Source: an uncultured Methylomirabilota bacterium (GTDB lineage Bacteria > Methylomirabilota > Methylomirabilia > CAVQYV01). Taken from it: a stretch of 64,000 bases of DNA. A program made the translations under genes and the position numbers. The stretch lies in assembly GCA_963718295.1 (NCBI GenBank), contig CAVQYV010000008.1:79098-143097 (forward strand). The letters run 5' to 3'. The notes under the pieces are model-generated. The model had not been told where the DNA came from, searched no databases, and saw only the letters and a list, made by a program, of their open reading frames with translations. The stretch's first letter is position 1; each line of letters starts with the position of its first letter. This document shows, in pieces, positions 9,091 to 58,060 of the stretch.

Positions 9091-9109
9091 CTCGGTCCCC
9101 GTTCAGTCT

Positions 9110-9433
9110 CTATTTCCGAGTGGATTCTTGTACCCAGCGAAGATATTCTTCCGATCCTCTTAGGATAGGTACGGCGATGATCTCCGGCACCGTGTACGAG
9201 TGAAGTTCCTTAACCCGCTCACATAATGCCGAAAAGAGATCACTCCTGCTCTTGGCGAAAAGAAGTAACTCCTCTTCCCTTTGGACAGCGCCTTCCCAGA
9301 AAAATATGGAGTAAACGGAAGGAAGGATGTTTATGCAGGCCGCCCACTTCTCCCGAATCAACACTTCCGCGATGTGATCCGCCTCTTCGCGATTGGGGAC
9401 GGTGATCAGAACTATAATATATGGGGCATCCAT
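9110..9433 (-). CDS. cutA: divalent-cation tolerance protein CutA
   Basis: About 108 aa with CutA1-like sequence (YIIVLITVPNREEADHIAEVLIREKWAACINILP...HSYTVPEIIAVPI); start chosen at MDAPY. Confidence 0.8.
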   Translation of the reverse strand: MDAPYIIVLITVPNREEADHIAEVLIREKWAACINILPSVYSIFFWEGAVQREEELLLFAKSRSDLFSALCERVKELHSYTVPEIIAVPILRGSEEYLRWVQESTRK

Positions 9434-9753
9434 GGCAGCCTCATCCATGAACGACATGAATGAAAGAAAGGTAACCGTAAAGCGATGGAATTGTCAAGCA
9501 ATTTTTTCCTGAACTCCCGCAAAGGACTGGCTCGTATTGACAAAGGAGCCGTCTTTGGTTATCGTGAATGAGCTTTTCTGCGGGTTTTCACCCTTCTCTC
9601 GCTCGAGCTCTCACGGGAGCCATCCAAGACTGCCACCCATTGAGTCTCGAAGCGGCATGAGATGACCCATGATGTGATTGTTGAGGTGCTGCCTTTTGGG
9701 GGATGTAGGAGCGCTGACCGAGATTGCTTTGTGAAGATGAAGAGGAGGAAGAG

Positions 9754-10551
9754 ATGAATCCAGAGGAGGCCAGGCTAGGCAAATGGTTTCCCAAGCTATT
9801 TGCGCTGGATGGGGAGGTGGCCCTTGTCACCGGAGGAGGTAGCGGGCTGGGTCAGGCCATTGCCCTCGGGCTCGCGGAGGCCGGATCTTCCGTTGCAGTA
9901 GCCGATATCTGGCGGGAGGGTGCCGAGGGCACTGCAGATCGCATCAGGGCGATGGGCAAAAAGGCAGCCGCGCTCCAGGTGGATGTGACCCAATCCTCCC
10001 AGGTCGAAAAGATGGCCCAGGCGGTCCTGCAGGATTGGGGCAAAATAGACATTCTGGTAAACAGTGCGGGGATTACTTATCGGGGGACAGCCTTGGAATT
10101 TCCGGAGAAGGAATGGGATCGTATCCTCGCGGTCAACCTCAAGGGCACCTTCCTTTCCTGTCAGGTAGTGGGGAGGGCAATGGTGGGTCGTGGAAGAGGC
10201 AAGATTATCAATATCGCGTCCATTGGCGGCCTGATCGCTTATTCCGGGACCATTGCCTATCTGGCCAGCAAGGGAGGGGTGGTTCAGCTGACCCGGGGAT
10301 TAGCAGTGGAGTGGGCTAAGGCCGGAGTGAGAGTGAACGCGATTGCGCCATTCGTCTTCGATACCCCTCTGGTAACCCACATCAAGGCTCAAGAGCCAGA
10401 GCATTTCCAGAGGATGATCGACAAAGCACCGATGGGCCGGCTGGGGCAAGCGGAGGAGATCATCGGGGCAGCCATCTTTTTGGCCTCATCCGCCTCCGAC
10501 TTGATCACGGGCCATATCTTAGCAGTGGACGGCGGATTTACCGCGCAATAG
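9754..10551 (+). CDS. SDR family oxidoreductase
   Basis: TGGGSGLG cofactor motif, catalytic YLASK; ATG at 9754 after gaggagg RBS (track ORF starts at TTG 9724). Confidence 0.85.
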   Translation: MNPEEARLGKWFPKLFALDGEVALVTGGGSGLGQAIALGLAEAGSSVAVADIWREGAEGTADRIRAMGKKAAALQVDVTQSSQVEKMAQAVLQDWGKIDILVNSAGITYRGTALEFPEKEWDRILAVNLKGTFLSCQVVGRAMVGRGRGKIINIASIGGLIAYSGTIAYLASKGGVVQLTRGLAVEWAKAGVRVNAIAPFVFDTPLVTHIKAQEPEHFQRMIDKAPMGRLGQAEEIIGAAIFLASSASDLITGHILAVDGGFTAQ

Positions 10552-11047
10552 ATTTTCTGGGAAAGGCAAGCTGCCGAGAAGCGGGGGGATTTTGCTCCGC
10601 GGCAATGGAAGAAAGCAGAAGGGAGTAAAGGGTGACGGCACCCAGGGCAGTGCTGTCAGCGCGAATGGAGATGGGGCTTGAAGAGTTCGAAGAAGCGGTG
10701 GGCGAGACGGGAATTGAGGGCTCAATTTGAGCTTCTTTTCATCTCGGTCCAGCAGCACCCCTCGGTAATGAGAGAAAACCTCCCATCCTCCCAAGGGGAG
10801 GAAGTATGCCAGGGCCAGCGCCACAATGATGATACAACGAAGGAACTTCATGAGCGACCTCCAGAACGAAGATATACTTGATCGCAAGCAATCTCCATGC
10901 CAGGTTGGCCGAAGCGACCTGATTCGTTGCTGACGTGTCATGAGAAGAGATTGAAGGGCCTTAGGGTTCCCCCAACGGCTGGCATCCAGGCAGAAATGAT
11001 CCCGATTTGAGGCAAGCGTCCCACACCTTTTCAAAGGAGGGCAGTCC

Positions 11048-11830
11048 ATGTTCACCTATGGCGTCAACATCTCCATGGTCTTTGCCGAGCACCCCTTCCC
11101 TGATCGAATCCAAAAGGTGGCAGAAGCCGGCTTCTCCGCCTTCGAATTCTGGTTTCCTTCCCTCTATGACATGAAGGCAGTCCAGGAGAAAAAGGAGCAA
11201 TTTGGCCTGGACGTAGCCCTGTTCAATCTCAATACCCCCCCCAACATGAAGGGCCTATTGTCGAATCCCAGGGAGGTCCAGCAGTTTCGGGACAGCCTGG
11301 ATGAGGCCGTCGGTCTAGCCCATGAGCTGGGCTGCAAGAGGATCAATACCCTGGCGGGAAATGCGCTGGAGGGGGTATCCCGAGAGGAGCAAAGGAAATG
11401 CGCCCTGGATAATCTGCGCTATGCGGCCAAGAGGCTGCAAGGTGAGGGAATCACCCTGATGTTCGAAGCCCTGAATCTCTTCGATAGCCCTGGCTACTTC
11501 CTTTCCAATTCGCGGGAGGCCTTTCAATGGGTAGAGGAGGTGGGGAGCCCCCTGGTGAAGTTCCAATATGACCTCTACCACATGCAGCTCATGGAGGGCA
11601 ATCTGCTCAACACCATCCGGGCCCACTTGGACAAGATCGGCCATATTCAGATCGCGGACGTACCTGGACGCCACGAGCCCGGCACCGGGGAGATCCATTA
11701 TCCCTTCGTCTTGAAGGCTCTGGAGGATATGGGCTATTCCGGTTATGTGAATCTGGAATATATCCCTTCCGGAAAATCGGAAGACTCCTTCCATTGGCTC
11801 CCCCGGTCTGCCCGAGGCCGGCGGGGTTGA
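11048..11830 (+). CDS. hydroxypyruvate isomerase family / xylose-isomerase-like TIM barrel protein
   Basis: 260 aa; N-terminus MFTYGVNISMVFAEHPFPDRIQKVAEAGFSAFEFW and overall layout typical of Hyi-like sugar-phosphate isomerases. Confidence 0.7.
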   Translation: MFTYGVNISMVFAEHPFPDRIQKVAEAGFSAFEFWFPSLYDMKAVQEKKEQFGLDVALFNLNTPPNMKGLLSNPREVQQFRDSLDEAVGLAHELGCKRINTLAGNALEGVSREEQRKCALDNLRYAAKRLQGEGITLMFEALNLFDSPGYFLSNSREAFQWVEEVGSPLVKFQYDLYHMQLMEGNLLNTIRAHLDKIGHIQIADVPGRHEPGTGEIHYPFVLKALEDMGYSGYVNLEYIPSGKSEDSFHWLPRSARGRRG

Positions 11831-34674: not shown

Positions 34675-35026
34675 CGCAGGATCCTCCTCCTCATCTTTGT
34701 GGCCAGAGCATATGCAGTATGAGAGTCATGGATTACATGGGTGAGGTTGTCCATAAAGCTATCAACTTTCGGGAGCGAGAACAACCCGAAACTTGTTCCG
34801 AAGGAGGGGGATCTCCGCTCTTACCCGGATCTCAAAAATGTTGACAAGTAGAGGCGAGAGGAGTAGATACCCAAGGGGGCAAGGGGGGCGCCACCCGTGC
34901 AATTCGGACTGCGTGGGATAGTTCAATCCCTTTTGAGCCAGCCGGGGCCTTTTCGAAAGGCCGGCACTTCGATTGGAGCCACACCGGTCAGGCGTGATGT
35001 ATTCTCTCATATGTCAGGAGGTTGCC

Positions 35027-35602
35027 ATGAAGAAAGCCATCCATTTCACCTTGGGAGCTCTCATCCTCTCTGCCCTTTCCGTGGGAATTGGCTTGCCCGA
35101 TCAGGCCTCTGCCACAGACGCCTCCCAAAGCACCAAGGATATCGAAAGGGCGTGGTTGCTCAAACAAGCCCTTCCCGGAGCGGATCGTTTCGAGAGCAGA
35201 GACGAGGGAGGAATCCCATACGAGATCGCCTATCGAGAAGAGGAAGTCATGGGCGGGGTGTTCTACACTGACGGCATGGGCTATGGGGGCACGATGCGGT
35301 TTATGGTGGGCCTCGACCCCGAGGGGAAGGTGGTCGAGATCGTCCTGGTGTCCCATAGGGAGAGCAAGGGGCTGGGGACCAAGGTCGCCGATCCCGTGTT
35401 CCTCTCCCAATTCCGCGGGAGGGGAGGACCTTTTGTCCTCAAGAGGGATCATCCCTCAGGAAACATCGATGGGGTGGCCGGGGCCACACTCTCCAGTCGC
35501 GGGGTGGTCATGGCCGTCGAAGAAGCGGTGAAGACCTTCCATCGCGTTTGGAAAGCGGAGGAGGGGACACCCCCGATTCCCCCTGCCAAGGGACAAGAGT
35601 GA
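35027..35602 (+). CDS. FMN-binding domain protein (exported)
   Basis: RBS caggagg before ATG at 35027; signal peptide MKKAIHFTLGALILSALSVGIG; C-terminal VDGVAGATLSSRGVVMAVEEAV resembles the FMN_bind covalent-flavinylation region. Confidence 0.55.
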   Translation: MKKAIHFTLGALILSALSVGIGLPDQASATDASQSTKDIERAWLLKQALPGADRFESRDEGGIPYEIAYREEEVMGGVFYTDGMGYGGTMRFMVGLDPEGKVVEIVLVSHRESKGLGTKVADPVFLSQFRGRGGPFVLKRDHPSGNIDGVAGATLSSRGVVMAVEEAVKTFHRVWKAEEGTPPIPPAKGQE

Positions 35603-45432: not shown

Positions 45433-45743
45433 GATTGTCCAATAGCTACGGCGATCGATTCACCGATGGAGTCAGTGAATCCGCCAGGAGAGCCTTTCCT
45501 CCGGGCAAATAGGGGGATCTGATCTTACACTGCAAAAGCGATAAAAGTTGAAAAATGATAGAATCCTATTGACGAAGGGCACATATCTTCGATATTCAAG
45601 TTGTGTCTTTTTTTGGCATCGCCGATGGCCCCTAACCGTAAATCATGAATAGGGCACCCGGTTCATCTCATAGGCCTCACTCTTAGCACATATCGTGTTT
45701 GGCTTCCAAGGGTAATTTTTTCATCCCTTTACGGCACACGCCC

Positions 45744-46628
45744 ATGTTCGATTTGACGACATATCTGGAAGAGAAGCGGCGGTTTGTGGACGAGGCGCTG
45801 GACCGCCACCTGCCTCCGGAGACGGAGAGGCCCTCCCTCTTGCACAAGGCGATGCGTTACAGCGTACAGTGCGGGGGAAAGCGCCTTCGTCCTATCCTCT
45901 GTCTGGCATCTTGTGAGGCAGCAGGCGGAACGCCAAGCTCGGCAATCATGCCTGCCGTGGCGCTGGAGTATTTGCATACCTACAGCCTGATTCATGATGA
46001 TCTACCCGCCATGGACAACGATGATCTGCGCCGGGGAAAACCCTCTTCCCACAAGATGTTCGGAGAGGCCAATGCCATCTTAGCCGGTGATGCCCTGCTC
46101 ACCCTGGCCTTCGCAGTGCTGGGACAGGCGATAGTGCCGGCCCCTTATCCCCCCACCGCGCTGATCCTGGAAATGGCCACCGCGGCGGGCAGTCGGGGTG
46201 TAGCCGGAGGACAGTTTGAAGATTTGGCCTCTGAGGGAAACGACCCCAATCCGGAACAACTGGACTATATTCACACCCACAAGACGGCCCAGCTGATTCG
46301 CGCCGCCTGCCGTCTGGGCGCCATCGTTGCCGGAGCGCCGCTGGAAGACCTGGAGGCCCTCAGCGCTTACGGAGAGCGAGCCGGACTCGCCTTCCAGATT
46401 GCCGACGACATCCTGAATGCCACCTCAACCCCGGAGGAGCTGGGCAAAGCCGTAGGCAGTGATGCAGCCCGCGGGAAAATGACCTATGTGGCCCTGTACG
46501 GGATCGAGCGTGCCCAGGAAAAAGCGGAGGCCCTGGCCCGGGAGGCGGCCGCCACGCTGGCGGAGATGGGCCCGCGCTCCGAGCCGCTGGCAGAACTGGC
46601 CCGTTTCATGGTTCATCGCAGCCGCTGA
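45744..46628 (+). CDS. polyprenyl synthetase family (geranylgeranyl diphosphate synthase-like)
   Basis: First Asp-rich motif LIHDDLPAMDNDDLRRG, second FQIADDILN; divergent from the carotenoid operon. Confidence 0.85.
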   Translation: MFDLTTYLEEKRRFVDEALDRHLPPETERPSLLHKAMRYSVQCGGKRLRPILCLASCEAAGGTPSSAIMPAVALEYLHTYSLIHDDLPAMDNDDLRRGKPSSHKMFGEANAILAGDALLTLAFAVLGQAIVPAPYPPTALILEMATAAGSRGVAGGQFEDLASEGNDPNPEQLDYIHTHKTAQLIRAACRLGAIVAGAPLEDLEALSAYGERAGLAFQIADDILNATSTPEELGKAVGSDAARGKMTYVALYGIERAQEKAEALAREAAATLAEMGPRSEPLAELARFMVHRSR

Positions 46629-46658: not shown

Positions 46659-47816
46659 CTAAAAGGCCAGCATCATCCGCGCATAGATCTCGGCGGCCTT
46701 CACCACCTGGTCCATCTCCACGAATTCTGATGCGGTATGGGCCTGGTCGATGCTGCCCGGCCCCAAGACGATCGTGGGAATGCCGGCCCGGGCGGTCTTG
46801 CTCCCATCCGTTCCGTAGGGAACGCCCTTCACCTTGACCTTTCCCAATACCTCGGAGATGGCCGCCTTCGCTACGTCAGCTACCTCTTCGGTCTCCCGGG
46901 TCTCCAGAGGATAATCCACCAGGAAGGGAGTCTCCATGGCCACCTGCAGCTCGGGGTCCCGGCCCCTCATTCCCTCCAGGAGTTCCTCAAAGGAGGCCAA
47001 AACCGAGTCCGGATCCTCCCCCGGGTTCAGGCGGCGGTCCAGCTCGATGACGCAGCGGTCCGGCACGATATTGATCTGAACTCCCCCCTCGATCTTTCCG
47101 ATGCTCAAGGTGGGTGGACCCACCAGGGGATGGCTGATTTGGGATAGGCGGGGCTGCATTTCCTCCTCGATCCGGTCGATGATCCGGGCCATCTTGGTGA
47201 TGGCATTGATCCCTTCCTTGGGCTTGGAGCTATGGGCCGCCTTCCCGGTCACCACGATCCTCCAACGCACCATTCCCTTGTGGGCAATGACCAAGTCCAA
47301 CTCGGTGGGCTCCCCTGCCACTGCGCCCTGCGCCCGGAAGCCGCCCTTCAGGAAATGGAGGATCCCCTTGAAGGTGTACTCCTCATCCACCGATCCCAGG
47401 AAATAGATGTCTGCCTTAGGCCTCCCTTGTTCCTTTACGGCCTTGAGGGCACAGAGCATGGCCGCGATGGAGGCCTTGTCGTCGCAGGCCCCCCTCCCAT
47501 AGAGGCGCCCCTGCTCGATCTTGGGATGGAAAGGGTCGATTTCCATTCCCTCGACCGGCATGGTATCCAGGTGGGCTTCAAAAAGCAGTCTCCTCCGGGA
47601 GTCAGCACCGGCGAGTCTTCCCAGGATGTTGGGCCGCCCGGGCAAGGCTTCATCTCGCTGGACCTCCATTCCCAGGGCCCTCAGGTAGTCGAAGATGTAA
47701 TTGCCGATCACTGCCTCTCCGTTCTTTGCCCCTTTCATGCTGGGGTTGATGCTCTCGATGGCGACCAGGTCCGACAGGACATTGATGACGTGCTCCCGGT
47801 CTACGGCGACTTGCAT
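46659..47816 (-). CDS. M20 family metallopeptidase / deacylase (ArgE/DapE-like)
   Basis: HLDTMPV and GACDDKAS metal-ligand motifs. Confidence 0.75.
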   Translation of the reverse strand: MQVAVDREHVINVLSDLVAIESINPSMKGAKNGEAVIGNYIFDYLRALGMEVQRDEALPGRPNILGRLAGADSRRRLLFEAHLDTMPVEGMEIDPFHPKIEQGRLYGRGACDDKASIAAMLCALKAVKEQGRPKADIYFLGSVDEEYTFKGILHFLKGGFRAQGAVAGEPTELDLVIAHKGMVRWRIVVTGKAAHSSKPKEGINAITKMARIIDRIEEEMQPRLSQISHPLVGPPTLSIGKIEGGVQINIVPDRCVIELDRRLNPGEDPDSVLASFEELLEGMRGRDPELQVAMETPFLVDYPLETRETEEVADVAKAAISEVLGKVKVKGVPYGTDGSKTARAGIPTIVLGPGSIDQAHTASEFVEMDQVVKAAEIYARMMLAF

Positions 47817-50101
47817 GACAAGCTCCTTTCTATTCGATATTCTGTCTTTGCTTTCGCTTCTTTCACGAAGGCCACCAGGAAGATCCAGGCGGCAAGGTTG
47901 ATGAAGGTCAATAGCAAAAGGGACTTAAGAATCCCCCATAGGGGTAGGAGGAGCGCCGAGAAGAGCAGGGCGCCCAGGGCGGAGCCCCAGAGGTCCACGG
48001 CATAGAGGGTCCCCCATGCCGCCTGGGAGCGGCTCTTAACCCACAGGGCATTCGCGAGGCAGAACTGCAGCCCTCCCAAGGCTCCTACTGCCAGGAGGAA
48101 GAAGAAGGAAAGGACCTCCACCCAACCCGACGAACCGGCGGAAGGCATGGATCCCCTCAGGGCCAGGAAGAAGAGGACACAGCAACCCATCAGGGCAGCC
48201 TGGGCGGTGAGAAGCCATCTCCTGAGACCTTGCGCTCTCCTCCCCCAGGAGGCCCCGATCCCCAAGCCGAGCATGAAGGCCGCCAGGAGGAGTCCCAGCT
48301 TGTGATAGATGAACCCATAAGAGATCTGGAAGGCCAGTAACGCTATGATCTCCAGGGAGATGGAGGTGAGGCCAGCGACAAAAACCGACCCCAAGACCGC
48401 GCCACTTGCGAGAGAGCCTCTGGTCGCCCCCAGAAAAACCAGGGAGGCGAGCAGGGCCAGGAGGCAGAGGGAGATCATAACCCAGGAAGTCCGCATGAGG
48501 AAGGGGAAAATGCTCCTTTCCCAGGCGCCGAATTGGGAGGCCCAAAGGGCAGCTCCATATAAGTGGCAGAGGGGCTCCAGATCTCGATTGATCCGAGCGT
48601 CCTGTCCCATCAGTCGATCATTCAGATAGTTCATCTTGAAGGGATGCAGGCGGAAGGGGATGAGGAACTCATTGACATATTGGTTATTGAGCTGCCGCTC
48701 CCGCAGCCGGGCGGCCAACTCCCGCGAGTCGCGCAGGAGAAGGCCCCTCTGGGGGCTGGCGAAAAATAGGCAGGTCTCTCCGGGAAAGGCCACCACCTCG
48801 GCAAAGACAGACCCCAGGGTATTCTGGATCAAAGCCAGGTATCGGGCCAGGTCCTCACTCAGGTAGTTCTCACTCGATGATACGCGGAAGGAAAAGACAC
48901 CCACCGGTTCGAGATGATCTTTTACGATCTGGAAGAATTCCCGGGTGTAAAAGCGGTTCAATTGGAGGGTGCGGGGGTCGGGGAGGTTGAGGATGATGAG
49001 GTCGTATCGTCTGTTGGATTGGCTCAACAGCAAACGCCCATCCCCATATCGGACCCTCACCCGGGGATCCTGGAGCACACTTGCTTCGGGGGGGATGTGT
49101 CGGGCCGCGAGATCGATGACCTGGGGATCCAACTCCGCGTAGTCGATCGTTAGCTTGGGATATTTGAGGGCCTGGGCCACTCCACCCCCCACGCCCCCTC
49201 CCAGGAGGAAGAGGGATTGTGGAGCGGGATGCTGCAGCAGGGCGAAATGGACTCCCTCTTCGGCGGCCGCCGGGTCGGGATAGGAGAAGAGGCGGAGGCC
49301 ATTCTCGAATAGATCGACCTGCCCCCATCGTTTCGTGACCGCAACATTGCCGTAAAGGGTATCGCGGGTATCCAGAAGGTTCAGCCCGCGCCAATGAAAT
49401 CTCCAGGAGAGCCGATCGAGGGCGGAAGGGAGGCCAAAAAAGAAGGAGAGGAGGAAAAATGCCAGCAGGAGAGCATTCACGACCAAGAGCCGCCTCGTCC
49501 CGGGCCATCGGAAGAGATCGAGTGCTATCAGCAAGTTGAGAAGCAGAATGAGAAAAGAGATCTTCAGGTTGGAAAGATGGGGGATGAAAAGATAGGTGCA
49601 GAGCATGCCTCCCAAGAAGGCCCCAATGGCCTCCCAGAGATAGACGAAAGAGACGGCCTGTCCGGGTCCACCTGAGGTCCGGGCGAAGAAGCGGGCGTTC
49701 AAGACAAACAGGAAGCCCAGGAGGAGACATAGGGGGAGGCTCAGGAGGAAGGAGAGAAGGAGGATTGTCGCCAAGGGCATGACTTCCCCCGGCCCCATGC
49801 CTAACAGGGGGCGCGCACTGCGAATCATGAGGAGGCAGACCGGGAGGGAAAAGCCAAGGGCCCCGTAGGCAAACGACAGGACCCTTTCCTCCTGATCAGC
49901 ACGATACCGGCGGGCGAGGAAATTGGCCAGGAAGCTTCCGGTCCCGACCCAGACCAGCCAGGCCGAGAGCATGATCCCCAGGGAGAGCTCGTTGCCGTAG
50001 GCCGCCACTACCATCTCCCGTAAGAGGAGGATCTGGGAGACGGCAGAGGTGAGACCCAAAGAAAGGGGAGAGGAGAGGAGGGCTCCCCTGCCCGAAATCA
50101 T
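47801..50101 (-). CDS. fused membrane (MFS-like) / spermidine synthase-like protein
   Basis: About 12 TM helices followed by aminopropyltransferase-like region (LFLLGGGVGG...IDYAELDPQVIDLA...DPRVRVRYGDGR...YDLIILNLPDP). Confidence 0.75.
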   Translation of the reverse strand: MISGRGALLSSPLSLGLTSAVSQILLLREMVVAAYGNELSLGIMLSAWLVWVGTGSFLANFLARRYRADQEERVLSFAYGALGFSLPVCLLMIRSARPLLGMGPGEVMPLATILLLSFLLSLPLCLLLGFLFVLNARFFARTSGGPGQAVSFVYLWEAIGAFLGGMLCTYLFIPHLSNLKISFLILLLNLLIALDLFRWPGTRRLLVVNALLLAFFLLSFFFGLPSALDRLSWRFHWRGLNLLDTRDTLYGNVAVTKRWGQVDLFENGLRLFSYPDPAAAEEGVHFALLQHPAPQSLFLLGGGVGGGVAQALKYPKLTIDYAELDPQVIDLAARHIPPEASVLQDPRVRVRYGDGRLLLSQSNRRYDLIILNLPDPRTLQLNRFYTREFFQIVKDHLEPVGVFSFRVSSSENYLSEDLARYLALIQNTLGSVFAEVVAFPGETCLFFASPQRGLLLRDSRELAARLRERQLNNQYVNEFLIPFRLHPFKMNYLNDRLMGQDARINRDLEPLCHLYGAALWASQFGAWERSIFPFLMRTSWVMISLCLLALLASLVFLGATRGSLASGAVLGSVFVAGLTSISLEIIALLAFQISYGFIYHKLGLLLAAFMLGLGIGASWGRRAQGLRRWLLTAQAALMGCCVLFFLALRGSMPSAGSSGWVEVLSFFFLLAVGALGGLQFCLANALWVKSRSQAAWGTLYAVDLWGSALGALLFSALLLPLWGILKSLLLLTFINLAAWIFLVAFVKEAKAKTEYRIERSLSCKSP

Positions 50102-51246
50102 CCCCAGACCCCAGGGATCTTCTCTCCGCAGTATCGGCAGGCCCCTTTTTGGAGATGGTTTTCCCGGATGCTATAGCCGACTCGACGGATCAGGGTCTTG
50201 CGACAGCGCGGACAATAGGTGTTCTCACCTTCGTGGCCCGGGACATTGCCAATGTAAACGAAAGAAAGGCCCGCATCCAGGGCAATCTGCCGTGCCCTCT
50301 CCAGGCTCTTCACCGGAGTAGGCGGGAGGTTCTTGAGCAGGTACATGGGGTGGAACCGTGTGAAATGGACCGGGACATGGGGGGAAAGCTCATTTTTGAT
50401 CCAATGACACATCTTGCGGATCGCTCCCTCCTGGTCATTGAGGGTGGGCACGGTCAGATAGACGATCTCATACCAGACACCTTGTTTCTTGAGGATCTTG
50501 AGGGATTCCAGGACCGGCTTCAGCTCCCCCTTGCAGACCTCTTGGTAGTACTTCTCGGTGAAGGCCTTCAGATCCACCTTGACCGCGTCAACTTGCCCGC
50601 AGAGTTCGGTAAGCGGTTCAGGATTGATGAAGGCATTGGTGACCACCACGCTCTTCAATCCCTTTCTTCTGGCCAGCCGGGCGATGTCGATCATATACTC
50701 AAAGAAGATGACCGGCTCGGAATAGGTGTAGGCAATGGAAGTGCATCCGGCTTGCTGCGCTTCAGAGACGATGGCCTCCGGAGGCAGATAGGAGTTCTGA
50801 ACCTGCTCTGGACGCACCTGGGAGATATCCCAATTCTGGCAGAATTTGCAGTGGATGTTGCACCCCGCCGTAGCCAGGGAAAAGGCCAGGGTGGAGGGCA
50901 GAAAATGAAAGAAGGGCTTTTTCTCGATAGGATCGACATTCAGGGCGGTGGGCCGGGAGTGGACCAGGGTATAGTAGGTGCCTTCTCGATTTTCCCTTAC
51001 TCCACAGAAGCCCCGCTCCAGATCGCCCACCCGGCAGCGCCGCGGGCAAAGTTGGCACTCCACCTCCTGGTTGGAGAGCCTCTGGTAGTATCTGGCCTCC
51101 ACCCGGGAGAGTTCGGGGACTCCGGCGAAGGCATCCTGCCCTTGCCCGTCATCCCAGATCGGATCCAGGGGAATGCGGGAGAGCGTGAAAACACAGGCCC
51201 CACCCACAACCCCCTTCAGAAACTGTCTCCGAGTGATGAATTTCAT
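50098..51246 (-). CDS. AmmeMemoRadiSam-system-type radical SAM enzyme with N-terminal twin-arginine (Tat) signal
   Basis: CNIHCKFC radical SAM cluster motif; N-terminus MKFITRRQFLKGVVGGACVFTL matches the Tat consensus. Confidence 0.75.
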   Translation of the reverse strand: MKFITRRQFLKGVVGGACVFTLSRIPLDPIWDDGQGQDAFAGVPELSRVEARYYQRLSNQEVECQLCPRRCRVGDLERGFCGVRENREGTYYTLVHSRPTALNVDPIEKKPFFHFLPSTLAFSLATAGCNIHCKFCQNWDISQVRPEQVQNSYLPPEAIVSEAQQAGCTSIAYTYSEPVIFFEYMIDIARLARRKGLKSVVVTNAFINPEPLTELCGQVDAVKVDLKAFTEKYYQEVCKGELKPVLESLKILKKQGVWYEIVYLTVPTLNDQEGAIRKMCHWIKNELSPHVPVHFTRFHPMYLLKNLPPTPVKSLERARQIALDAGLSFVYIGNVPGHEGENTYCPRCRKTLIRRVGYSIRENHLQKGACRYCGEKIPGVWG

Positions 51247-51383
51247 TCTTCTTCTTCCTTGGATTCCCTATCCTGGGTCTGCATCGTGATTTCGTGATTC
51301 AAGAAGCCTCTCCCTTTGCGTTGGCAGCCTATTCATCGCCACGACTCGAGCCTGCCTGGCCAGGCGCCGACCCCAGGGCGCAT

Positions 51384-51746
51384 CTATTTGGGAGCCAGCA
51401 GATAATCAGACAGGGCCTCCTCCTCCCGGGAGAAGTGAAAGTCAGGCATAATGGTGAAATGGTTGTACTGATGGGGGTTGCGCAGGCGTCCGATGATCCA
51501 ATCACGGGTCCTTTTTTCCTTCTTCCATATCTCCGTCAGATCGGGGGCGGCTTTCCCGCCCCTTCCCTCCATCGTGTGGCAATCCCGGCAAATCTGGGAG
51601 TCGAAGATCTTTTTTCCGCGCGCCACGCTTTGCTTGGAGGCCAAGCCGTCCACTGGCCAGGAGAGGAGGAGGCCGAGGGCGGCTCCGAAAGGAATGAAGA
51701 GCATTCGGCCCAGGCCCGCGTATCCGTTGATGCCTATTGGAATCAT
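51384..51746 (-). CDS. c-type cytochrome (single heme)
   Basis: CRDCH heme-binding motif; hydrophobic N-terminus; RBS ggagga before ATG at 51746. Confidence 0.6.
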   Translation of the reverse strand: MIPIGINGYAGLGRMLFIPFGAALGLLLSWPVDGLASKQSVARGKKIFDSQICRDCHTMEGRGGKAAPDLTEIWKKEKRTRDWIIGRLRNPHQYNHFTIMPDFHFSREEEALSDYLLAPK

Positions 51747-51809
51747 CTCATCTCCTCCGTTTCAGTTGGGTCTGCCTTCTCCATGAGAGCAAAGATCTGA
51801 TCCGTCAAA

Positions 51810-52715
51810 TCACAGGGACAGCTCAAAGACCTCGATCTCGGATTCGCGGCACTTTCCCAGCCGGTGATCGGAATCCCCCGCGGTCAGGATATAGGTGGGT
51901 GCCCGCCCCTCCTGCTCCAGGCTGGGCAGTCCGTGAACCTTGCGAATCTGGTCAAGGAGGCGCCAGGCAACAAAATCCAGGGCCACAGGATCCCGGGAGA
52001 CCAGGATCCCCTGGTAGTTCTCGACCCATTGGGATTTGAAGGCGGGTCCCCCATTATATTGCACCCGCAGGGCGTCGCAGAGGACCAGGCGGCATCTATC
52101 CCGGATCTGAGGGAGGGCACAAAGATCTGCGGGATAGGGGTTACAATGGTCGCCATGATATTTGTTGGGATTGTGGATCGCACCATAGAAATTTTTCAGG
52201 GCGGCGCTGAGGCCGGCCAGGTTATGGTCTTTGAGGAGACAGAGGTTGATTTGGGCATTGGTAAGGGAGGTAAGGATACGGCTGAGGAGGCCACCAATGG
52301 AGCCGTTCTCCACCAGATTCGGATCATACCCTACCCCCTGGGCATCGGTACCGAAACAGCGAATTCCTCGCCCATCGAAATTGAGGTAAAATCCCGCCTC
52401 CTTGAGCTCGCGGCTGCTGCGATCCCAGAGGACGATCTTCTTCTCATCCACCCCTGCCTGCTTCAGGCCCCGGCTCAGGACCGAAGCCCAGGCCGGGCTG
52501 GGTGAGAGAAGATGGCCTCCTATGGCATTCAATTTGACCCCCACTGTGTCGGAAGGCAAAAAGAGCGACTTCCACACCCCCTGGGCGGTGGAGATGCCCG
52601 TCATCTTTCGCAGGGCCGCATCGAGCATGCCCTGCAGGATCTCACCGTCCGTTGCCCCTCCGGGACCCAGGACCCTCTTGCTTCTCACGATCACGACTCG
52701 CGATTTGACGGCCAT
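51810..52715 (-). CDS. DUF362 domain protein
   Basis: Start chosen at MAVKSRVVIV; DUF362-like VGVKLNAIGG region; track ORF extends to 52844. Confidence 0.5.
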   Translation of the reverse strand: MAVKSRVVIVRSKRVLGPGGATDGEILQGMLDAALRKMTGISTAQGVWKSLFLPSDTVGVKLNAIGGHLLSPSPAWASVLSRGLKQAGVDEKKIVLWDRSSRELKEAGFYLNFDGRGIRCFGTDAQGVGYDPNLVENGSIGGLLSRILTSLTNAQINLCLLKDHNLAGLSAALKNFYGAIHNPNKYHGDHCNPYPADLCALPQIRDRCRLVLCDALRVQYNGGPAFKSQWVENYQGILVSRDPVALDFVAWRLLDQIRKVHGLPSLEQEGRAPTYILTAGDSDHRLGKCRESEIEVFELSL

Positions 52716-52874
52716 GGAGAAAAGATAGCCGAGGCCAAAGGCAAAGTCAAGCTTGCCTGAATCACCTCCGAATCGACAATCCCCTTCGCTCTTTCTTTCC
52801 TTGACAATTGGCAGGGGGCAGATTAATTTATTGCCCAGTCTCACGGGTGAGGATAAGAAAGATTGAATTGGGGA

Positions 52875-54380
52875 ATGAAACTCAAGGACATACTCTGGCT
52901 GGGGATCATTCTATGTTCCGCTTATCCGGGTCTGGTGGCCGGCAAGGCGATGGCAGCTGAGATTCGAAAACCTGCTGTGGCGGGGCTTTTCTATCCAGGG
53001 GAAAAGAAAGAACTCGCGTCGCTGGTGGACCGATACCTGAAGGAGGCACCGTTGCAGCCCTGTGCCGAGGAAGAGATCGTGGCGCTGATTGCGCCTCACG
53101 CCGGCTATCTCTATTCGGGAAGGGTCGCCGCCTACGCTTACAAGCAGATTCAGGGCAAGGAGTACGATCTGGTAGTCCTCATTGGCCCCAGCCACTCCAT
53201 GGAATTCGAGGGGGTCTCGCTCTATGGTGGGGATTGCTACGAGACCCCACTGGGAAAGGTCCAGATCGACAAGAGTTTCTCCGAGGCCCTGATCCGCCAG
53301 GAAAAATCCTTCCGCCTCCTCCCCCAAGCCCACCAGAAAGAGCACTCCTTGGAGGTTCAGCTCCCATTTCTTCAGAGATCACTGGGGAAGTTCTCTCTCC
53401 TTCCCCTCCTCATGGGTTCCCAGTCTCTTTCCTCCTGTAAGGCCCTGTCCGCGGCCTTGGTCAAGGTCCTGAAAGGCAAGAAGGCCCTCTTGGTGGCCAG
53501 CTCGGACCTCTCCCATTATCATTCTGCCAAGATGGCCAAGAGGTTGGATGATGGGGCGATCCAGGCCATTGCCGCGATGGATGGGCCCGCCCTTATCCAT
53601 CGGATGGAGGCGGGCTCCTGCGAATTGTGTGGGGCAGGCCCAGTGGCGACGGTCCTTCTGGCAGCCAAGGAAATGGGGGCCCATCGCGTGTCCATCCTGA
53701 AATATGCCGACTCCAGTGAGGTCTCCCAGGATCCCTCCGCGGTGGTGGGCTATCTTTCCGCAGCCGTCACCAGAGGCAAGGGAAAGAGCGGGAGAGAGAA
53801 GACACCGCCGCAGCAGGGGGCAAATGAAGGTTCACTGAGTGGCCGGAACCGGAGCGAGCTGCTGCAGATAGCAAGGAAAGCCATCGAGACCTATGTGAGG
53901 GAGGGAAAGGTCTGGGAACCCGAGATACCCGATCAGGATAGGGAGTTGCTCCGCCCCGGGGCCGCCTTCGTGACCCTCACCCAGGCAGGAGAACTGCGGG
54001 GCTGCATCGGCTACACCGAGGCCCTATATCCCCTCTATCGCACGGTGATCCGGTGTGCAATCGCCGCTGCCACCTCCGATCCGCGATTTGCGCCGTTGAA
54101 GTCGCAAGAGCTGGAAGAGGTCAGGATCGAAATCTCGGTGCTCAGTCCATTGAGGCAAATCCAGGATCTCTCAAAGATCCAGGTGGGCAGAGACGGGATC
54201 CAGATCGAGAAGGGGGGACAAAGGGGCCTGCTCCTTCCCCAGGTGGCGACAAAATATCATTGGGATCGGAGGACCTTCCTGGAGCAAACTTGCTACAAGG
54301 CGGGCCTGCCTTCCGATGCCTGGCACGAAGGGGCGAAGATCTTCACCTTCTCGGCGGAGATCTTTCACGAAGTCAAATGA
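52875..54380 (+). CDS. Memo-like / AMMECR1 fusion protein (AmmeMemoRadiSam protein B-A fusion) with Sec-type signal peptide
   Basis: Signal peptide MKLKDILWLGIILCSAYPGLVAG; Memo region GLFYPGE...IAPHAGYLYSG; AMMECR1 region AAFVTLTQAGELRGCIGY...LLLPQVA. Confidence 0.7.
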   Translation: MKLKDILWLGIILCSAYPGLVAGKAMAAEIRKPAVAGLFYPGEKKELASLVDRYLKEAPLQPCAEEEIVALIAPHAGYLYSGRVAAYAYKQIQGKEYDLVVLIGPSHSMEFEGVSLYGGDCYETPLGKVQIDKSFSEALIRQEKSFRLLPQAHQKEHSLEVQLPFLQRSLGKFSLLPLLMGSQSLSSCKALSAALVKVLKGKKALLVASSDLSHYHSAKMAKRLDDGAIQAIAAMDGPALIHRMEAGSCELCGAGPVATVLLAAKEMGAHRVSILKYADSSEVSQDPSAVVGYLSAAVTRGKGKSGREKTPPQQGANEGSLSGRNRSELLQIARKAIETYVREGKVWEPEIPDQDRELLRPGAAFVTLTQAGELRGCIGYTEALYPLYRTVIRCAIAAATSDPRFAPLKSQELEEVRIEISVLSPLRQIQDLSKIQVGRDGIQIEKGGQRGLLLPQVATKYHWDRRTFLEQTCYKAGLPSDAWHEGAKIFTFSAEIFHEVK

Positions 54381-54423: not shown

Positions 54424-55446
54424 ATGAAGGCCTTGGTCTATCACGGAAAGGATTCCATTGCCCTGGATGAGATGAAGGAGCCCGAGTTGCAGGAGGGGGA
54501 GGCCCTGATCAAGGTCCACTATGCCGGGATCTGCGGCAGCGACCTCATGATCTGGCACGGGGCCCTGGCGCGCATCGTTCCTCCGGTCATCCTCGGACAC
54601 GAATTCTGCGGCGAGATCGTGAAGATCAAGGGCCAGCCCCAGGGCGACCTCACGGTGGGCGATCGGGTGGCGGTGGAGCCCCTCATCAACTGTGGAGTCT
54701 GCCTTCCCTGCCGCATGGGCCTCTACCATGTGTGCCGCCGACTCAGGCTCATCGGGGTCGACGTAGATGGAGGATTTGCTTCTTGGGTGAAGGCCCCATT
54801 TCACCGCATCTATAAGCTGGCGCCAGGTGCGAGCATGGAGATGGCCGCGCTGAGCGAACCCACCGCCGTAGCTGTACACATGGTGAGGCGTTCTGGCCTT
54901 CAGGTAGGGGACCTCGCGGTAATCCTGGGAGGAGGCCCCATTGGCCTGTTGGTGGCCCAGGTCGCCCGGGCGTGTGGGGCGGGACGGGTCTTCATCTCGG
55001 AGATCAACGATTTTCGGCTTGGCCTGGCCAGGGAGTTGGGCTTCGGGGTGATCGATCCCCGAAAGGGAGATCCGATCCGGGAAGTCCTGGATATGACAGA
55101 GGGAGAGGGAGCGGATGTGGTCTTCGAGGAGACCGGCTTGCCCGAGGCGGCAGCCCAGATGATTGCCATGACCAGGGTGCGGGGTCGCATTCTCCTGGGT
55201 GGGGTCCATAAGAAGCCTGCTCCCGTGGATCTGCAGAATGTGGTGATCAAGGAGATCGAGCTGGTCGGATCCAGGGTCTACGATTTTCGGGATTTCCGCA
55301 CCGCCCTGGATATGTTAAATGATGGAAGAGTAAAGGGTGCTTCGCTGATCACCAAGAAGATTCGATTGGATGAAATCATTACGGAAGGCTTCGATGTGAT
55401 TCAGGGTGGGGGCCAGGTGATGAAGATCCTGGTGAGCCCGGAGTGA
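54424..55446 (+). CDS. zinc-dependent alcohol dehydrogenase family (threonine/sorbitol dehydrogenase-like)
   Basis: GICGSDL, GHEFCGEIV zinc-ligand motifs; Rossmann LGGGPIGLL. Confidence 0.85.
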   Translation: MKALVYHGKDSIALDEMKEPELQEGEALIKVHYAGICGSDLMIWHGALARIVPPVILGHEFCGEIVKIKGQPQGDLTVGDRVAVEPLINCGVCLPCRMGLYHVCRRLRLIGVDVDGGFASWVKAPFHRIYKLAPGASMEMAALSEPTAVAVHMVRRSGLQVGDLAVILGGGPIGLLVAQVARACGAGRVFISEINDFRLGLARELGFGVIDPRKGDPIREVLDMTEGEGADVVFEETGLPEAAAQMIAMTRVRGRILLGGVHKKPAPVDLQNVVIKEIELVGSRVYDFRDFRTALDMLNDGRVKGASLITKKIRLDEIITEGFDVIQGGGQVMKILVSPE

Positions 55447-55476
55447 GCTGAGGATCGGCGAAAGGAGGAGATCGGA

Positions 55477-56319
55477 ATGCCCGTTTCAAAGGCGCTGATT
55501 GAGGAATTGGAGAAGAAGGCCAATGGGCTGCGCTGCGATGTGGTGAAAATGTGCCACCAAGCCGGCTCTGGCCATCCGGGGGGGTCGCTGTCGGCGGCCG
55601 ACATCGTGGCTGCCCTCTATTTCCACTTCATGCGGTTGGATCCCCAGAACCCGAAGTGGGAGGATCGGGATCGGTTCATCATGAGCAAGGGCCACGCCTG
55701 CCCGGTTCAATATGCGGCCCTCTCCCGCAGGGGTTTCTTTCCCGAGGAGGTTCTCTGGACCCTGCGCAAGTTCGAGAGCCCCCTGCAAGGCCATCCCGAC
55801 ATGAAATCTACCCGAGGCCTCGACATGACCTCGGGATCTCTGGGGAATGGATTGTCCATCGGGGTGGGAATGGCCCTGGGAGCCAGGATCGCGAAAAAGG
55901 ACTTCCGGGTGTACGTAATGCTGGGGGATGGAGAGCTTCAGGAAGGCCTGGTCTGGGAAGGGGCGATGGCGGCAGCCCATTTCAAGCTGGATCACCTGAC
56001 TACCTTCGTGGATTACAACAAGCTCCAGATCGATGGGGAGAATAAGGATATCATGGGACTGGAGCCGCTGGTGGGGAAATGGCAACAGTTCGGCTGGGAG
56101 ACCCTGGAGATCGACGGCCACAACATGACGGAGGTGGTGGGCGCCATCGAGCAAGCCCAGGGAATGAAGGGCAAGCCCACCTGCATCATCGCTCATACGG
56201 TCAAAGGCAAAGGGGTCTCCTATATGGAGTGCGCGGCGGAATGGCACGGCCGTGCTCCCACCGGCGAAGAGTTGGATCGGGCCCTGTGCGAGTTAGGGGA
56301 GAAGGGAGGGCAGGGTTAA
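55477..56319 (+). CDS. transketolase, N-terminal (ThDP-binding) subunit
   Basis: GSGHPGGSLS and LGDGELQEG thiamine-diphosphate motifs; 280 aa. Confidence 0.85.
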   Translation: MPVSKALIEELEKKANGLRCDVVKMCHQAGSGHPGGSLSAADIVAALYFHFMRLDPQNPKWEDRDRFIMSKGHACPVQYAALSRRGFFPEEVLWTLRKFESPLQGHPDMKSTRGLDMTSGSLGNGLSIGVGMALGARIAKKDFRVYVMLGDGELQEGLVWEGAMAAAHFKLDHLTTFVDYNKLQIDGENKDIMGLEPLVGKWQQFGWETLEIDGHNMTEVVGAIEQAQGMKGKPTCIIAHTVKGKGVSYMECAAEWHGRAPTGEELDRALCELGEKGGQG

Positions 56320-57260
56320 TGGGCGAGCGGATCACCCTACAATCGGCCTATGGGGAGGCGCTGAAGACGCTGGGATCCAAGTATCCCAATCTGGTGGTCC
56401 TGGATGCGGATCTATCCAAGATCACCCAGACCGTGCATTTTGCCAAGGCTTTCCCCGATCGCTTTTTCAACGTGGGGATTGCGGAACAGGACTTGATGGC
56501 CATCACCGCAGGCCTGGCTACCACCGGCATGATCCCGGTGGCCAACACCTACGCCTGCTTTGCGACCATGAGGGCCTGCGAGCAGGTGCGCACCTTCATT
56601 GCCTATCCCAACCTCAATGCGAAAATCGTGGCTCTGAGCGCCGGGATCGAGGAAGGATGGAGCGGAGTCACCCATCAGGCCATCGAAGATATGGCGATCA
56701 TGAGAACCATCCCCAATATGACGGTCATAGCCCCCTCGGATGCCTTCCTCACCCAAAAGGCCACTGAGGCCATGGTCCAGCATAAGGGACCCGTTTATAT
56801 GCGATTTGGCCGGAATGCCTTTCCGGTCATCTACGATGAGAAGGCCTCTTTTACGCTGGGAAAGGCGATCCAGCTGAAGGAGGGAAAGGATGTGACGCTG
56901 ATCGCCTGCGGGATCATGGTGGAAAAGGCCCTCCGGGCCGCAGAGATCCTGGAAAAGGAGCGGGTCTTTGCCCGAGTCCTGGATATGCACACTATCAAGC
57001 CCTTGGACGGGGAGGCCGTCATGGCTGCGGCCAAGGAGACCGGAGCTTTGGTGACCGCTGAGGATCATCTGGTGGCCAATGGCCTGGGCGGCGCCGTGGC
57101 GGAATATCTGGCTTCCAATTGGCCGGCGCCCTTGGAGCGGATTGGCCTTCAGGATACCTTCGGGGAGACGGGCCATCCGGACAGGCTCTTTGAAAAATAT
57201 GGGATGACGGAGAGCCATATCGCAGAGGCGGCCAGGAAGGCCATTGTGCGCAAAAGATGA
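56319..57260 (+). CDS. transketolase, C-terminal subunit
   Basis: Start overlaps upstream stop (TAATG); pyrimidine-binding and C-terminal transketolase domains. Confidence 0.85.
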
Positions 57261-57673
57261 GCGACGGGAAGATGGAGGGCTTGCAGCCGCCTCGTCCCAC
57301 GGTGGATATCATTATCGAACTGGAGGGCAGGGGCATCGTCCTGATCAGGCGAAGGAATCCTCCTTATGGCTGGGCCATCCCGGGAGGATTCGTGGATTGC
57401 GGGGAAACCCTGGAGCAGGCCGCGGTCCGTGAGGCATGGGAGGAAACCACCCTGCAGGTGGAATTGATCAGGCAGTTTCACGCCTATTCCGATCCGGACC
57501 GCGACCCCCGGAGCCATACGATCTCCATGGTCTTCATCGCCAGATCCTCGGGTGAGCCAAAGGCAGCGGATGACGCCCAGGAGATTGGGGTCTTTCGAGC
57601 CGATAGCCTGCCTCAGCCCCTGGCCTTCGATCATGGCCGGATCCTGGCCGACTATTTCTCTGGCGCCTATTAG
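57257..57673 (+). CDS. NUDIX hydrolase
   Basis: Nudix box [24 protein letters not shown]; ATGA overlap with upstream gene. Confidence 0.8.
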
Positions 57674-57682
57674 GGGAATTGG

Positions 57683-58060
57683 TTGAAGAAGCGTCTTCAG
57701 GAGCTGCTCGGCCTGATCAGGGGCCTCACCCAGGATGATCGTATTCCCGAGCGGGACAAGCTGATCCTGGGAGGCCTCCTGGCTCTCCTGATTTCCCCCC
57801 TCGACCTGATTCCCGACTTCATCCCAATTTTGGGGTATCTCGATGATTTCTTCATGTGGGTGCTGTTGCTGGATTATCTCTTTGGCAGGATTGACCGGGA
57901 GGTCCTCGTGGATCATTATCCCTGGGATCTGAGGGGCTATGAGCGGATGCGCCGTTGGGTGGGTTATGTCTCCTGGGTCATCCCCAACATGATCAAAAAC
58001 CGGATCTGGGCAAAAGCAAAGACAGGAGCATCAGATACCGAAGAGGTGAAGGAAAAATAG
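57683..58060 (+). CDS. DUF1232 (YkvA-like) small membrane protein
   Basis: TTG start; DUF1232-like LISPLDLIPDFIPILGYLDD region. Confidence 0.5.
   Translation: MKKRLQELLGLIRGLTQDDRIPERDKLILGGLLALLISPLDLIPDFIPILGYLDDFFMWVLLLDYLFGRIDREVLVDHYPWDLRGYERMRRWVGYVSWVIPNMIKNRIWAKAKTGASDTEEVKEK

Follow-up and report, generated by a model that had tools for sequence, protein, structure and literature searches.

Organization of the Amr locus

The window analyzed here, a 64-kb stretch of contig CAVQYV010000008.1 from an uncultured Methylomirabilota bacterium, contains a locus for the AmmeMemoRadiSam system, whose components are the radical SAM (S-adenosylmethionine, AdoMet) enzyme AmrS, the Memo protein AmrB, and the AMMECR1 protein AmrA. 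All Amr components are found inside 4.3 kb, they are likewise co-located in the related loci L001, L086, and L087 and in many other loci, and there is no second Amr copy within the 64-kb window. The genes for a DUF362 protein, a c-type cytochrome, and AmrS are on the minus strand, and a fused Memo-AMMECR1 gene is divergent on the plus strand, with the DUF362 and cytochrome c genes sitting between those for AmrS and the fusion. A membrane protein (hereafter the membrane partner) is encoded directly behind AmrS. The principal features are listed below; scores are in bits from profile hidden Markov models (HMMs), and TM denotes a transmembrane segment.

50098..51246, minus strand: AmrS, the AmmeMemoRadiSam radical SAM enzyme, 382 amino acids (TIGR04337, 393.7, cut-off 220, residues 51-381; PF04055, 68.9)
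51124..51246, minus strand: predicted twin-arginine translocation (Tat) signal peptide of AmrS, residues 1-41, MKFITRRQFLKGVVGGACVFTLSRIPLDPIWDDGQGQDAFA, followed by G (exact S/T-R-R-x-F-L-K consensus and conservation)
50839..50862, minus strand: radical SAM cluster motif CNIHCKFC (C129-x3-C133-x2-C136), its columns invariant in alignment A1
51384..51746, minus strand: monoheme c-type cytochrome, 120 amino acids, with its own hydrophobic signal (CRDCH at 51576-51590; PF00034, 27.3, cut-off 21.3)
51810..52715, minus strand: DUF362 protein, 301 amino acids, without a signal peptide in the window's lineage (PF04015, 51.8, cut-off 24)
52875..54380, plus strand: Memo-AMMECR1 (AmrB-AmrA) fusion (TIGR04336, 294.1, cut-off 26; TIGR04335, 196, cut-off 99; PF01875, 233.7; PF01871, 189.1)
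52875..52955, plus strand: predicted Sec signal peptide of the fusion, MKLKDILWLGIILCSAYPGLVAGKAMA, followed by AEIRKP (n, h, and c regions; A-x-A right before the first conserved Memo residues)
About 52968-53762, plus strand: Memo domain of the fusion (HMM matches)
About 53862-54365, plus strand: AMMECR1 domain of the fusion (HMM matches)
47801..50101, minus strand: membrane partner, 766 amino acids, with 6 TM, TM7, a spermidine-synthase-like domain, TM8, and 6 TM (PF01564, 72.7; NF037959, 79.8, cut-off 40)
About 48482-49432, minus strand: spermidine-synthase-like domain of the membrane partner (HMM match to PF01564, Spermine_synth)

A preliminary description of this DNA had reported the AmmeMemoRadiSam trio, a twin-arginine motif ahead of CNIHCKFC in the radical SAM open reading frame (ORF), a Memo-like and an AMMECR1 part in one ORF with a Sec-type signal, and a single-heme cytochrome c (CRDCH) and a DUF362 protein between them. 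The gene content was read correctly. The Amr families score far above their trusted cut-offs, both intervening genes exceed their Pfam cut-offs, TRRQFLK is read directly from the sequence, and HAGYLYSG and GCIGY are seen in the fusion, whose signal pattern is conserved in its orthologs. The span given there, 50098-54380, does hold all four genes and misses the membrane partner, which lies just outside it.

Predicted Tat signal of AmrS and its conservation

The N-terminus of AmrS opens with MKFITRRQFLKG, and its TRRQFLK motif leads a 50-residue extension outside the TIGR04337 model, whose match starts at residue 51. The extension has the motif and the A-x-A site of a Tat substrate, namely T5-R-R-Q-F-L-K11, an h-region GVVGGACVFTL, and A39-F-A41. 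In the AlphaFold model of AmrS, residues 1-4 and 11-44 have a pLDDT (predicted local distance difference test) below 50 and the fold begins at about residue 45-50; an N-terminus modeled as unstructured fits a detachable signal. The Tat system is a route for folded, cofactor-loaded proteins, and a Tat-type signal therefore fits AmrS, in which three groups of cysteines are invariant in alignment A1 (C64/C67/C71/C81, C129/C133/C136, and C345/C348/C370/C373). The closest solved relative of AmrS by sequence is a pyruvate formate-lyase (PFL)-activating enzyme (3c8f; PFL-AE only). AmrS is predicted to be exported via Tat.

More than 150 related loci were compared overall, in a species set and a metagenome set. 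A one-genome-per-species scan gave 80 further loci, so that there are 82 distinct species-level AmrS loci in all, and the metagenome set consists of 80 loci recovered from metagenome contigs with an alignment of the membrane partner. Six-frame translations of the species-set loci were searched with the window's proteins, and their signal calls were corrected manually, upstream frames included. The RR motif is at the same place in about 105 of the 120 best AmrS homologs (58-99% identity), the remainder being N-terminally truncated gene calls. Named matches among these 120 include Zixibacteria, Aminicenantes, and Brocadia, and many of the 120 have AYA, AFA, or ASA after the RR motif. The 82 species-level loci comprise 45 with Tat-type AmrS N-termini (a KREF variant of the motif occurs in Bacteroidales), 14 with strongly hydrophobic, anchor-like N-termini without RR (from Omnitrophota, Chlamydiae, WOR-3, and Auribacterota), and 23 without a signal; 59/82 are thus signal-bearing. 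The signal-less proteins, which start directly with M-K-E-A-x-F-Y-E, come from Methanosarcinales, Bathyarchaeia, Syntrophales, and some Acidobacteriota, and are mostly archaeal. In a neighbor-joining tree, 19 of these 23 fall into one block, and about seven state changes explain the distribution, which suggests that the signal is a stable inherited character rather than noise. All 44 complete AmrS proteins of the metagenome set bear a signal (38 classified as Tat, 4 more assigned by eye, and 2 anchor-type). Signals are kept at the amino-acid level down to 42-60% identity and across more than 10 phyla; one AmrS locus (L046) is frameshifted. The preliminary description had called the configuration unusual, and these comparisons show the opposite: in the sampled loci, bacteria commonly have the predicted exported configuration.

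Several AmrS homologs have further peculiarities. Five Tat-bearing proteins (L037, L047, L055, L083, and P0370) have an insert of about 25-30 residues with CxxCH and downstream histidines (e.g., CLKCHTPGDDLTDRQHH) between the Tat signal and the normal CxxCxxxC motif. Heme c might be covalently attached at this insert, and that alone would point to a periplasmic protein. In six homologs (P0448, P0467, P0473, P0485, P0491, and P0503) an insertion of about 450 residues splits AmrS at CX3CX2C, and in the two that were scanned (P0448 and P0473) it is, by Pfam, an intein with a LAGLIDADG homing endonuclease. One Omnitrophota metagenome-assembled genome (L027) has tandem AmrS genes, at 8679-9737 without a signal and at 9953-11125 with a Tat signal and followed by the membrane partner.

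Predicted signals of the Memo-AMMECR1 fusion

The likely start of the fusion is the ATG at 52875 (MKLKDIL...), as in the 97% identical homolog P0121, and not the TTG at 52863. Judged by hand, its N-terminus has the three parts of a Sec signal, MKLKD, ILWLGIILCSAYPGLVAG, and KAMA, with AE after the predicted cleavage site. In orthologous fusions a Sec pattern or a lipobox likewise ends just before the conserved [IV]R[KR]P.VAG. The predicted cleavage sites directly precede the first conserved Memo residues, which is where cytoplasmic homologs begin (MEKNVRKPVIAG...). The fusion contains HAGYLYSG, LRGCIGY, and SDPRF, and thus both AMMECR1 motifs, RGCIG and DxR[FY], as defined previously (PMC2034487). 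The catalytic motifs at the locus are intact (CX3CX2C, RGCIG, DPRF, and the Memo His/Asp/Cys positions).

Fusion of the two proteins was already noted in 2007 (PMC2034487) and is common: both domains are present in all 119 full-length proteins among the 120 best matches, in signal-bearing (Sec or lipobox) and signal-less forms. The signals of the two separate genes vary together. Where a fusion adjoins a signal-bearing AmrS, it has a signal in 23/23 judgeable cases, and in one locus (L077) neither AmrS nor the fusion has one. In the metagenome set, 48 of the 51 Memo-AMMECR1 fusions are signal-bearing.

Single-polypeptide triple fusions are also found, in three orders: AmrS-Memo-AMMECR1, AmrS-AMMECR1-Memo (900-1150 amino acids), and Memo-AMMECR1-AmrS. 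They include L051 (9953-12397), P0377, P0410, P0417, P0418, and others, and most are without a signal peptide; L051 is an AmrS-Memo-AMMECR1 fusion without a signal, and P0377 has an N-terminal hydrophobic helix.

A membrane partner with an AdoMet-fold domain

The membrane-partner gene, with a 4-bp overlap at the AmrS stop codon, is a putatively translationally coupled gene downstream of AmrS. In the species set, it is found within 10 kb of AmrS in 36/59 signal-bearing loci, compared with 1/23 signal-less loci (Fisher p=1.3e-6). In the reverse search of metagenome contigs, 29 loci have 3 kb or more of sequence on either side; they contain AmrS in 26 cases, DUF362 in 22, and Memo and AMMECR1 in 20. 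By these counts, the membrane partner is the most consistently linked partner of AmrS with a predicted export signal. The other recurrent neighbor families, response regulators and ABC ATPases, were set aside as generic in the neighbor clustering.

The topology of the membrane partner can be predicted from 29 orthologs, in which the K+R density of successive loops is 0.22, 0.01, 0.25, 0.10, 0.14, 0.04, 0.34, [domain], 0.23, 0.06, 0.28, 0.06, 0.14, 0.04, and 0.23. Under the positive-inside rule, this alternation suggests an N-terminus inside, seven TMs, the domain outside, seven more TMs, and a C-terminus inside. The spermidine-synthase-like domain would thus be on the periplasmic side. An hhalign comparison finds homology between residues 2-200 and 563-746 (probability 98.6%, E 4.8e-16), indicating a 6+6 parallel repeat, i.e., an architecture like that of the major facilitator superfamily (MFS), in which the central loop holds TM7, the domain, and TM8 as an insertion, to give 14 TM. 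No Pfam MFS model matches either TM half, and the term MFS-like therefore rests on the architecture and on the NCBIfam name NF037959, 'fused MFS/spermidine synthase', whose cut-off is exceeded by the window protein (79.8 against 40).

The domain aligns with the Thermus spermidine synthase SpeE (1uir, E 4.6e-19) and keeps the ELDP and DGR nucleotide-binding motifs. It differs from SpeE in that the acidic residue of GGGDG, by which SpeE selects decarboxylated AdoMet, is gone (GGGVGGG in the window; GGG[VI]GG) and the first, catalytic Asp of D-x-x-DP is not conserved (LNLPDP), which is the same in the 29 orthologs, and in that it is inserted between two homologous 6-TM halves and predicted to be periplasmic. 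All SpeE equivalog cut-offs are missed by the membrane partner (174 against 472, 91 against 260, and 74.5 against 249.6). We concluded from these alignments that the domain has an AdoMet fold and would not be a bona fide aminopropyltransferase. In one contig fragment of 523 amino acids (P0411), AmrS appears to be fused to the N-terminal part of the membrane partner; the fragment lacks IPGVW, the conserved C-terminus of AmrS, and was set aside as probably a frameshift in the 4-bp overlap.

Electron-transfer modules and the sidedness of AmrS

By searching the representatives of 50%-identity clusters, we have found AmrS fused to other modules in the following arrangements.

P0376 and P0381: signal or TM, FMN_bind, and AmrS, with no TM between
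P0369 and P0371: TM, FMN_bind, NapH-like Fer4_5, an extra TM, and AmrS
P0373: DsbD_2, FMN_bind, Fer4_5, TM, and AmrS
P0379 and P0380: DsbD_2 and AmrS
P0365 and P0367: signal, a beta-propeller or carbohydrate-binding-module (CBM)-like domain, and AmrS

In the NapH-like fusions the CX3CP loops are K/R-rich, as expected of cytoplasmic loops, and an extra TM past the last of these loops brings AmrS back to the FMN_bind side (P0369, P0371, and P0373). Unfused DsbD_2 or DsbD_2-FMN_bind-Fer4_5 directly adjoins AmrS in 9 of the 14 anchor-type loci, suggesting that the hydrophobic segment of these AmrS proteins is the counterpart of the final TM in the fusions. FMN_bind, NapH-like, and DsbD modules are absent beside the window's Amr genes; they are found in relatives (P0369, P0371, P0373, P0376, P0379-81, L038, L053, and several Omnitrophota loci). 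An ORF elsewhere in the window (34937-35599, plus strand) weakly resembles (E 1e-5) the NapH-like/FMN_bind fusion proteins beside AmrS in L038 and L053.

FMN_bind, NapH-like, and DsbD systems have been described as extracytosolic electron-transfer systems, in which cytochrome and flavin modules interchange and most of the NapH-like members serve reactions yet to be identified (PMC8238504). Memo, AMMECR1, DUF362, and 'radical SAM' do not occur in the main text of that study (Meheust et al. 2021). The presence of AmrS fused to or beside such modules provides independent support for reading the system as extracytoplasmic and redox-coupled.

DUF362 and the cytochrome c

The start of the DUF362 gene is the ATG at 52715, giving 301 amino acids as in P0241 and about 100 homologs of about 300 amino acids, and not the GTG at 52844. 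Its closest named homolog is P0254 (69% identity), labeled candidate division NC10. No relative was found by a sequence search of the PDB with DUF362. Its AlphaFold model (pLDDT 94.5) matches the fold of LarA-family nickel-pincer racemases by Foldseek, with the match to 7s91 at E 4.7e-6, TM-score 0.51, and probability 1.0; across 7s91, 9q3k, 9q3j, and 9eia, E ranges from 4.7e-6 to 7.7e-4 and the TM-score is about 0.4-0.5, again with probability 1.0. The likeness is at the fold level only, as identity is 11-16% and DUF362 is about 100-150 residues shorter. DUF362 adjoins AmrS in many phyla. It has its own Tat signal in loci labeled Acidobacteriota, Eisenbacteria, KSB1, deltaproteobacteria, and others, and 31 of the 34 DUF362 proteins in the metagenome set bear a Tat-type signal. 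From its conserved position and its modeled structure, DUF362 is a putative conserved accessory of the exported system with a LarA-like fold.

The cytochrome is a class I c-type cytochrome by its CRDCH motif and its PF00034 score; it reaches no NCBIfam equivalog cut-off. Its gene is found elsewhere only in L087, a 97-99% identical relative, and is absent from the syntenic loci L086 (80% identity) and L001 (74% identity); no homolog is present in the 80 metagenome loci recovered through the membrane partner (0/29 of those well flanked). Given this restriction to L087, we read the cytochrome c gene as a recent, lineage-specific insertion.

One could suppose instead that the cytochrome is an integral and general electron donor of the exported system. 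The gene does lie between DUF362 and AmrS and encodes its own signal peptide, a few AmrS proteins carry the CxxCH insert after the Tat signal described above, and in extracytosolic systems flavinylated modules reportedly can take the place of cytochrome modules and vice versa (PMC8238504). We nevertheless find a general role unlikely, because the gene is missing from all but the nearest relative. In addition, the potential of a class I cytochrome c is normally too high to reduce a radical SAM cluster. The cytochrome may be at most a lineage-specific extra electron carrier.

A probable extracytoplasmic AmmeMemoRadiSam system and its alternatives

The locus probably encodes an AmmeMemoRadiSam system that works outside the cytoplasm, a form that we consider widespread in bacteria. 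The reading draws on the AmrS signal, the coherence of signals on the tree, their co-variation between genes, the fusions that fix the side on which AmrS lies, the DsbD_2 neighbors, and the membrane partner. The preliminary description had already proposed an extracytoplasmic, possibly redox-coupled version, and both the conserved, co-varying signals and the electron-transfer modules of relatives argue for it. In orthologs the start codons precede the signal peptides rather than follow them. The neighborhood on which that description relied is conserved in part, in that DUF362 recurs beside AmrS and the cytochrome c does not.

In such a form, AmrS, Memo, and AMMECR1 would act together at the outer face of the cytoplasmic membrane, on a substrate that can be reached from that face; the most plausible candidates would be a lipid or isoprenoid embedded in the membrane, or a molecule of the envelope. 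The radical SAM cluster would receive its electrons from lineage-specific donors, which may be DUF362, joined here by the recently gained cytochrome c, and in other lineages the FMN_bind/NapH-like or DsbD_2 transmembrane modules. The MFS-like partner might deliver or hold an AdoMet-type cosubstrate, or the substrate itself. In its most specific version, the radical SAM chemistry takes place outside the membrane, the periplasm-facing AdoMet-fold domain of the partner exports or presents AdoMet (or a derivative), the conduits (DUF362, FMN_bind/NapH-like, DsbD_2, and here cytochrome c) reduce AmrS, and the trio modifies a lipid, isoprenoid, or envelope molecule; we offer this version tentatively, as a possible scheme that may well be wrong.

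A number of points weigh against an extracytoplasmic system. We know of no periplasmic AdoMet pool, and neither AdoMet nor low-potential reductants are, to our knowledge, present in the periplasm. Our literature search found no precedent for an exported radical SAM enzyme. The location of AmrS outside is itself predicted from sequence, and the window's AmrS N-terminus falls just below the cut-offs of the Tat HMMs (PF10518, 18.2 against 22.7, E 0.0023; TIGR01409, 16.2 against 16.7), so that the case for Tat rests on the exact consensus motif and its conservation across homologs; the homolog P0098 has a precomputed PF10518 match. In one locus (L040) AmrS lacks a signal beside exported partners, and the non-RR, Sec-like AmrS N-termini of 14 loci are hard to square with the export of an iron-sulfur (Fe-S) enzyme unless they are membrane anchors. 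The linkers past the last TM in the NapH-like fusions are K/R-rich, which by itself argues for a cytoplasmic AmrS. DUF362 is without a signal beside AmrS in the window's lineage and in Zixibacteria, and two loci (L017 and L022) have a separate AMMECR1 protein without a clear signal. The apparent fusion P0411, which joins AmrS to the cytoplasmic N-terminal end of the membrane partner, would be at odds with that protein's predicted topology if it were genuine.

Some of these points could be accommodated if AmrS performed its radical chemistry in the cytoplasm, its target being AmrS itself or something bound to it (a small molecule, or a partner such as the signal-less DUF362), and were then exported folded through Tat, by hitchhiking, with a periplasmic stage that is not radical chemistry. 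Tat exports folded proteins and complexes, the signal-less DUF362 of the window's lineage and of Zixibacteria is encoded directly upstream of the Tat-bearing AmrS, clear signals are missing from the separate AMMECR1 proteins of L017 and L022, and the closest characterized relatives of AmrS are protein-activating enzymes (PFL-AE). There is also a published system (PMC13128918) in which a cytoplasmic radical SAM enzyme matures a Tat-exported effector. However, a Sec-type fusion is exported unfolded and cannot meet AmrS in the cytoplasm, dedicated transmembrane electron-transfer modules fused to or beside AmrS suggest that electrons are needed after export, and the AdoMet-fold domain of the membrane partner is also outward-facing. 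We regard cytoplasmic chemistry followed by export as distinctly unlikely.

Alternatively, the N-terminal segments could be tethers that keep AmrS at the inner side of the membrane, in contact with the membrane partner and with the cytoplasmic Fe-S loops of NapH-like modules, with only Memo-AMMECR1 outside. Such an arrangement would solve the problem of AdoMet and reductant, and it would suit the 14 anchor-like N-termini, the K/R-rich linkers of the fusion proteins, and the cytoplasmic position of the NapH CX3CP Fe-S sites (PMC8238504). Yet the positive charges lie N-terminal of the helix, where an anchor puts the next domain outside, and 45/82 loci have the Tat consensus with downstream A-x-A sites. 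FMN_bind and AmrS are on one side with no TM between them in P0376 and P0381, typically extracytoplasmic domains lie between the signal and AmrS in P0365 and P0367, and AmrS, if cytoplasmic, would have no need of the extra TM that separates it from the last CX3CP loop. A cytoplasmic, tethered AmrS is quite improbable on these grounds. That the signals are artefacts of ORF calling, with true starts downstream and an ordinary cytoplasmic system, is barely credible: TIGR04337 does start at residue 51, where archaeal homologs begin, but most homologs have no in-frame start codon between signal and domain, the protein sequence of the extension is kept across phyla, and signal presence co-varies between separate genes and tracks the AmrS phylogeny.

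Flanking genes

Three further features adjoin or separate the genes discussed above.

52716..52874, no strand assigned: intergenic region that separates the divergent DUF362 operon and Memo-AMMECR1 gene
52750-52722, minus strand: sigma-70-like match in the divergent intergenic region (consensus match only)
46659..47816, minus strand: M20/ArgE-like peptidase gene, a lineage-specific operon tail (ORF in the window, family name from L001 and L086)

The operon is flanked by this peptidase gene, which shares 16 bp with the end of the membrane-partner gene, and by a polyprenyl synthetase gene (45699-46628, plus strand), also named from relatives' loci. L001 has the two in the same arrangement, and L086 shares the peptidase (Peptidase_M20); more distant loci do not have the peptidase gene in this position. 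On the other side, 3' of the fusion gene, a run of plus-strand genes (54424-58060) encodes a zinc-type alcohol dehydrogenase, a split transketolase (N and C parts), a NUDIX protein, and a DUF1232 protein. The run is kept in L001, L086, and L087, from which alone the family names are assigned, and may be co-transcribed with the fusion gene in the window's lineage only. Scans of the 64-kb window for tRNA and Rfam families gave no tRNA genes and no Rfam match at the gathering score.

Comparison with known systems

Conserved from archaea to humans and linked to disease, Memo and AMMECR1 are without an agreed biochemical function. The published prediction is that the AmmeMemoRadiSam system is cytoplasmic and modifies RNA bases (PMC2034487). 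A bacterial clade that exports the system, as predicted here, conflicts with RNA base modification as its universal function (PMC2034487). In our literature search, no experimental paper on the AmmeMemoRadiSam family was found, and no function has been established. An article from 2019 reportedly predicts, in its abstract, 'nucleotide base and aliphatic isoprenoid modification', and the exported form would agree better with this isoprenoid context. The search found no description of the exported form; that article, Burroughs et al. 2019, was outside its reach, and a prior mention there is possible.

If the system is exported, the Memo/AMMECR1 substrate class conserved across life would not be RNA, and export of the whole trio by a large bacterial clade would limit the substrates to those reachable from the outer face of the membrane. 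Concrete partners would be gained in the AdoMet-fold membrane protein, DUF362, and the electron-transfer modules. It would also raise the question of where a radical SAM enzyme outside the cytoplasm obtains AdoMet and a low-potential electron, and would make AmrS a candidate client enzyme for uncharacterized NapH-like and DsbD-like flavinylated systems.

With flavinylation-associated systems the locus has in common that relatives of the window's AmrS are fused to or beside FMN_bind with Fer4_5 (NapH-like) and DsbD_2, and it differs from them in having DUF362 and a cytochrome c instead of those modules. Tat-exported Fe-S redox enzymes (hydrogenase small/large subunits and DmsAB) resemble AmrS in the S/T-RRxFLK signal before a cysteine-rich, presumably Fe-S-loaded protein, and the neighboring signal-less protein, DUF362 in the window's lineage, could be co-exported as in those systems. 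The passenger here is a radical SAM enzyme, in contrast, and its dependence on Tat is predicted, with Tat HMM scores just under cut-off. The closest likeness is to AmmeMemoRadiSam itself (TIGR04335 for AmrA, TIGR04336 for AmrB, and TIGR04337 for AmrS), as all three proteins exceed their cut-offs, are co-located, and have intact motifs. The form found here differs in its predicted export signals on AmrS and on the Memo-AMMECR1 fusion (and usually, though not in this lineage, on DUF362), and in the addition of DUF362 and an MFS-like membrane protein.

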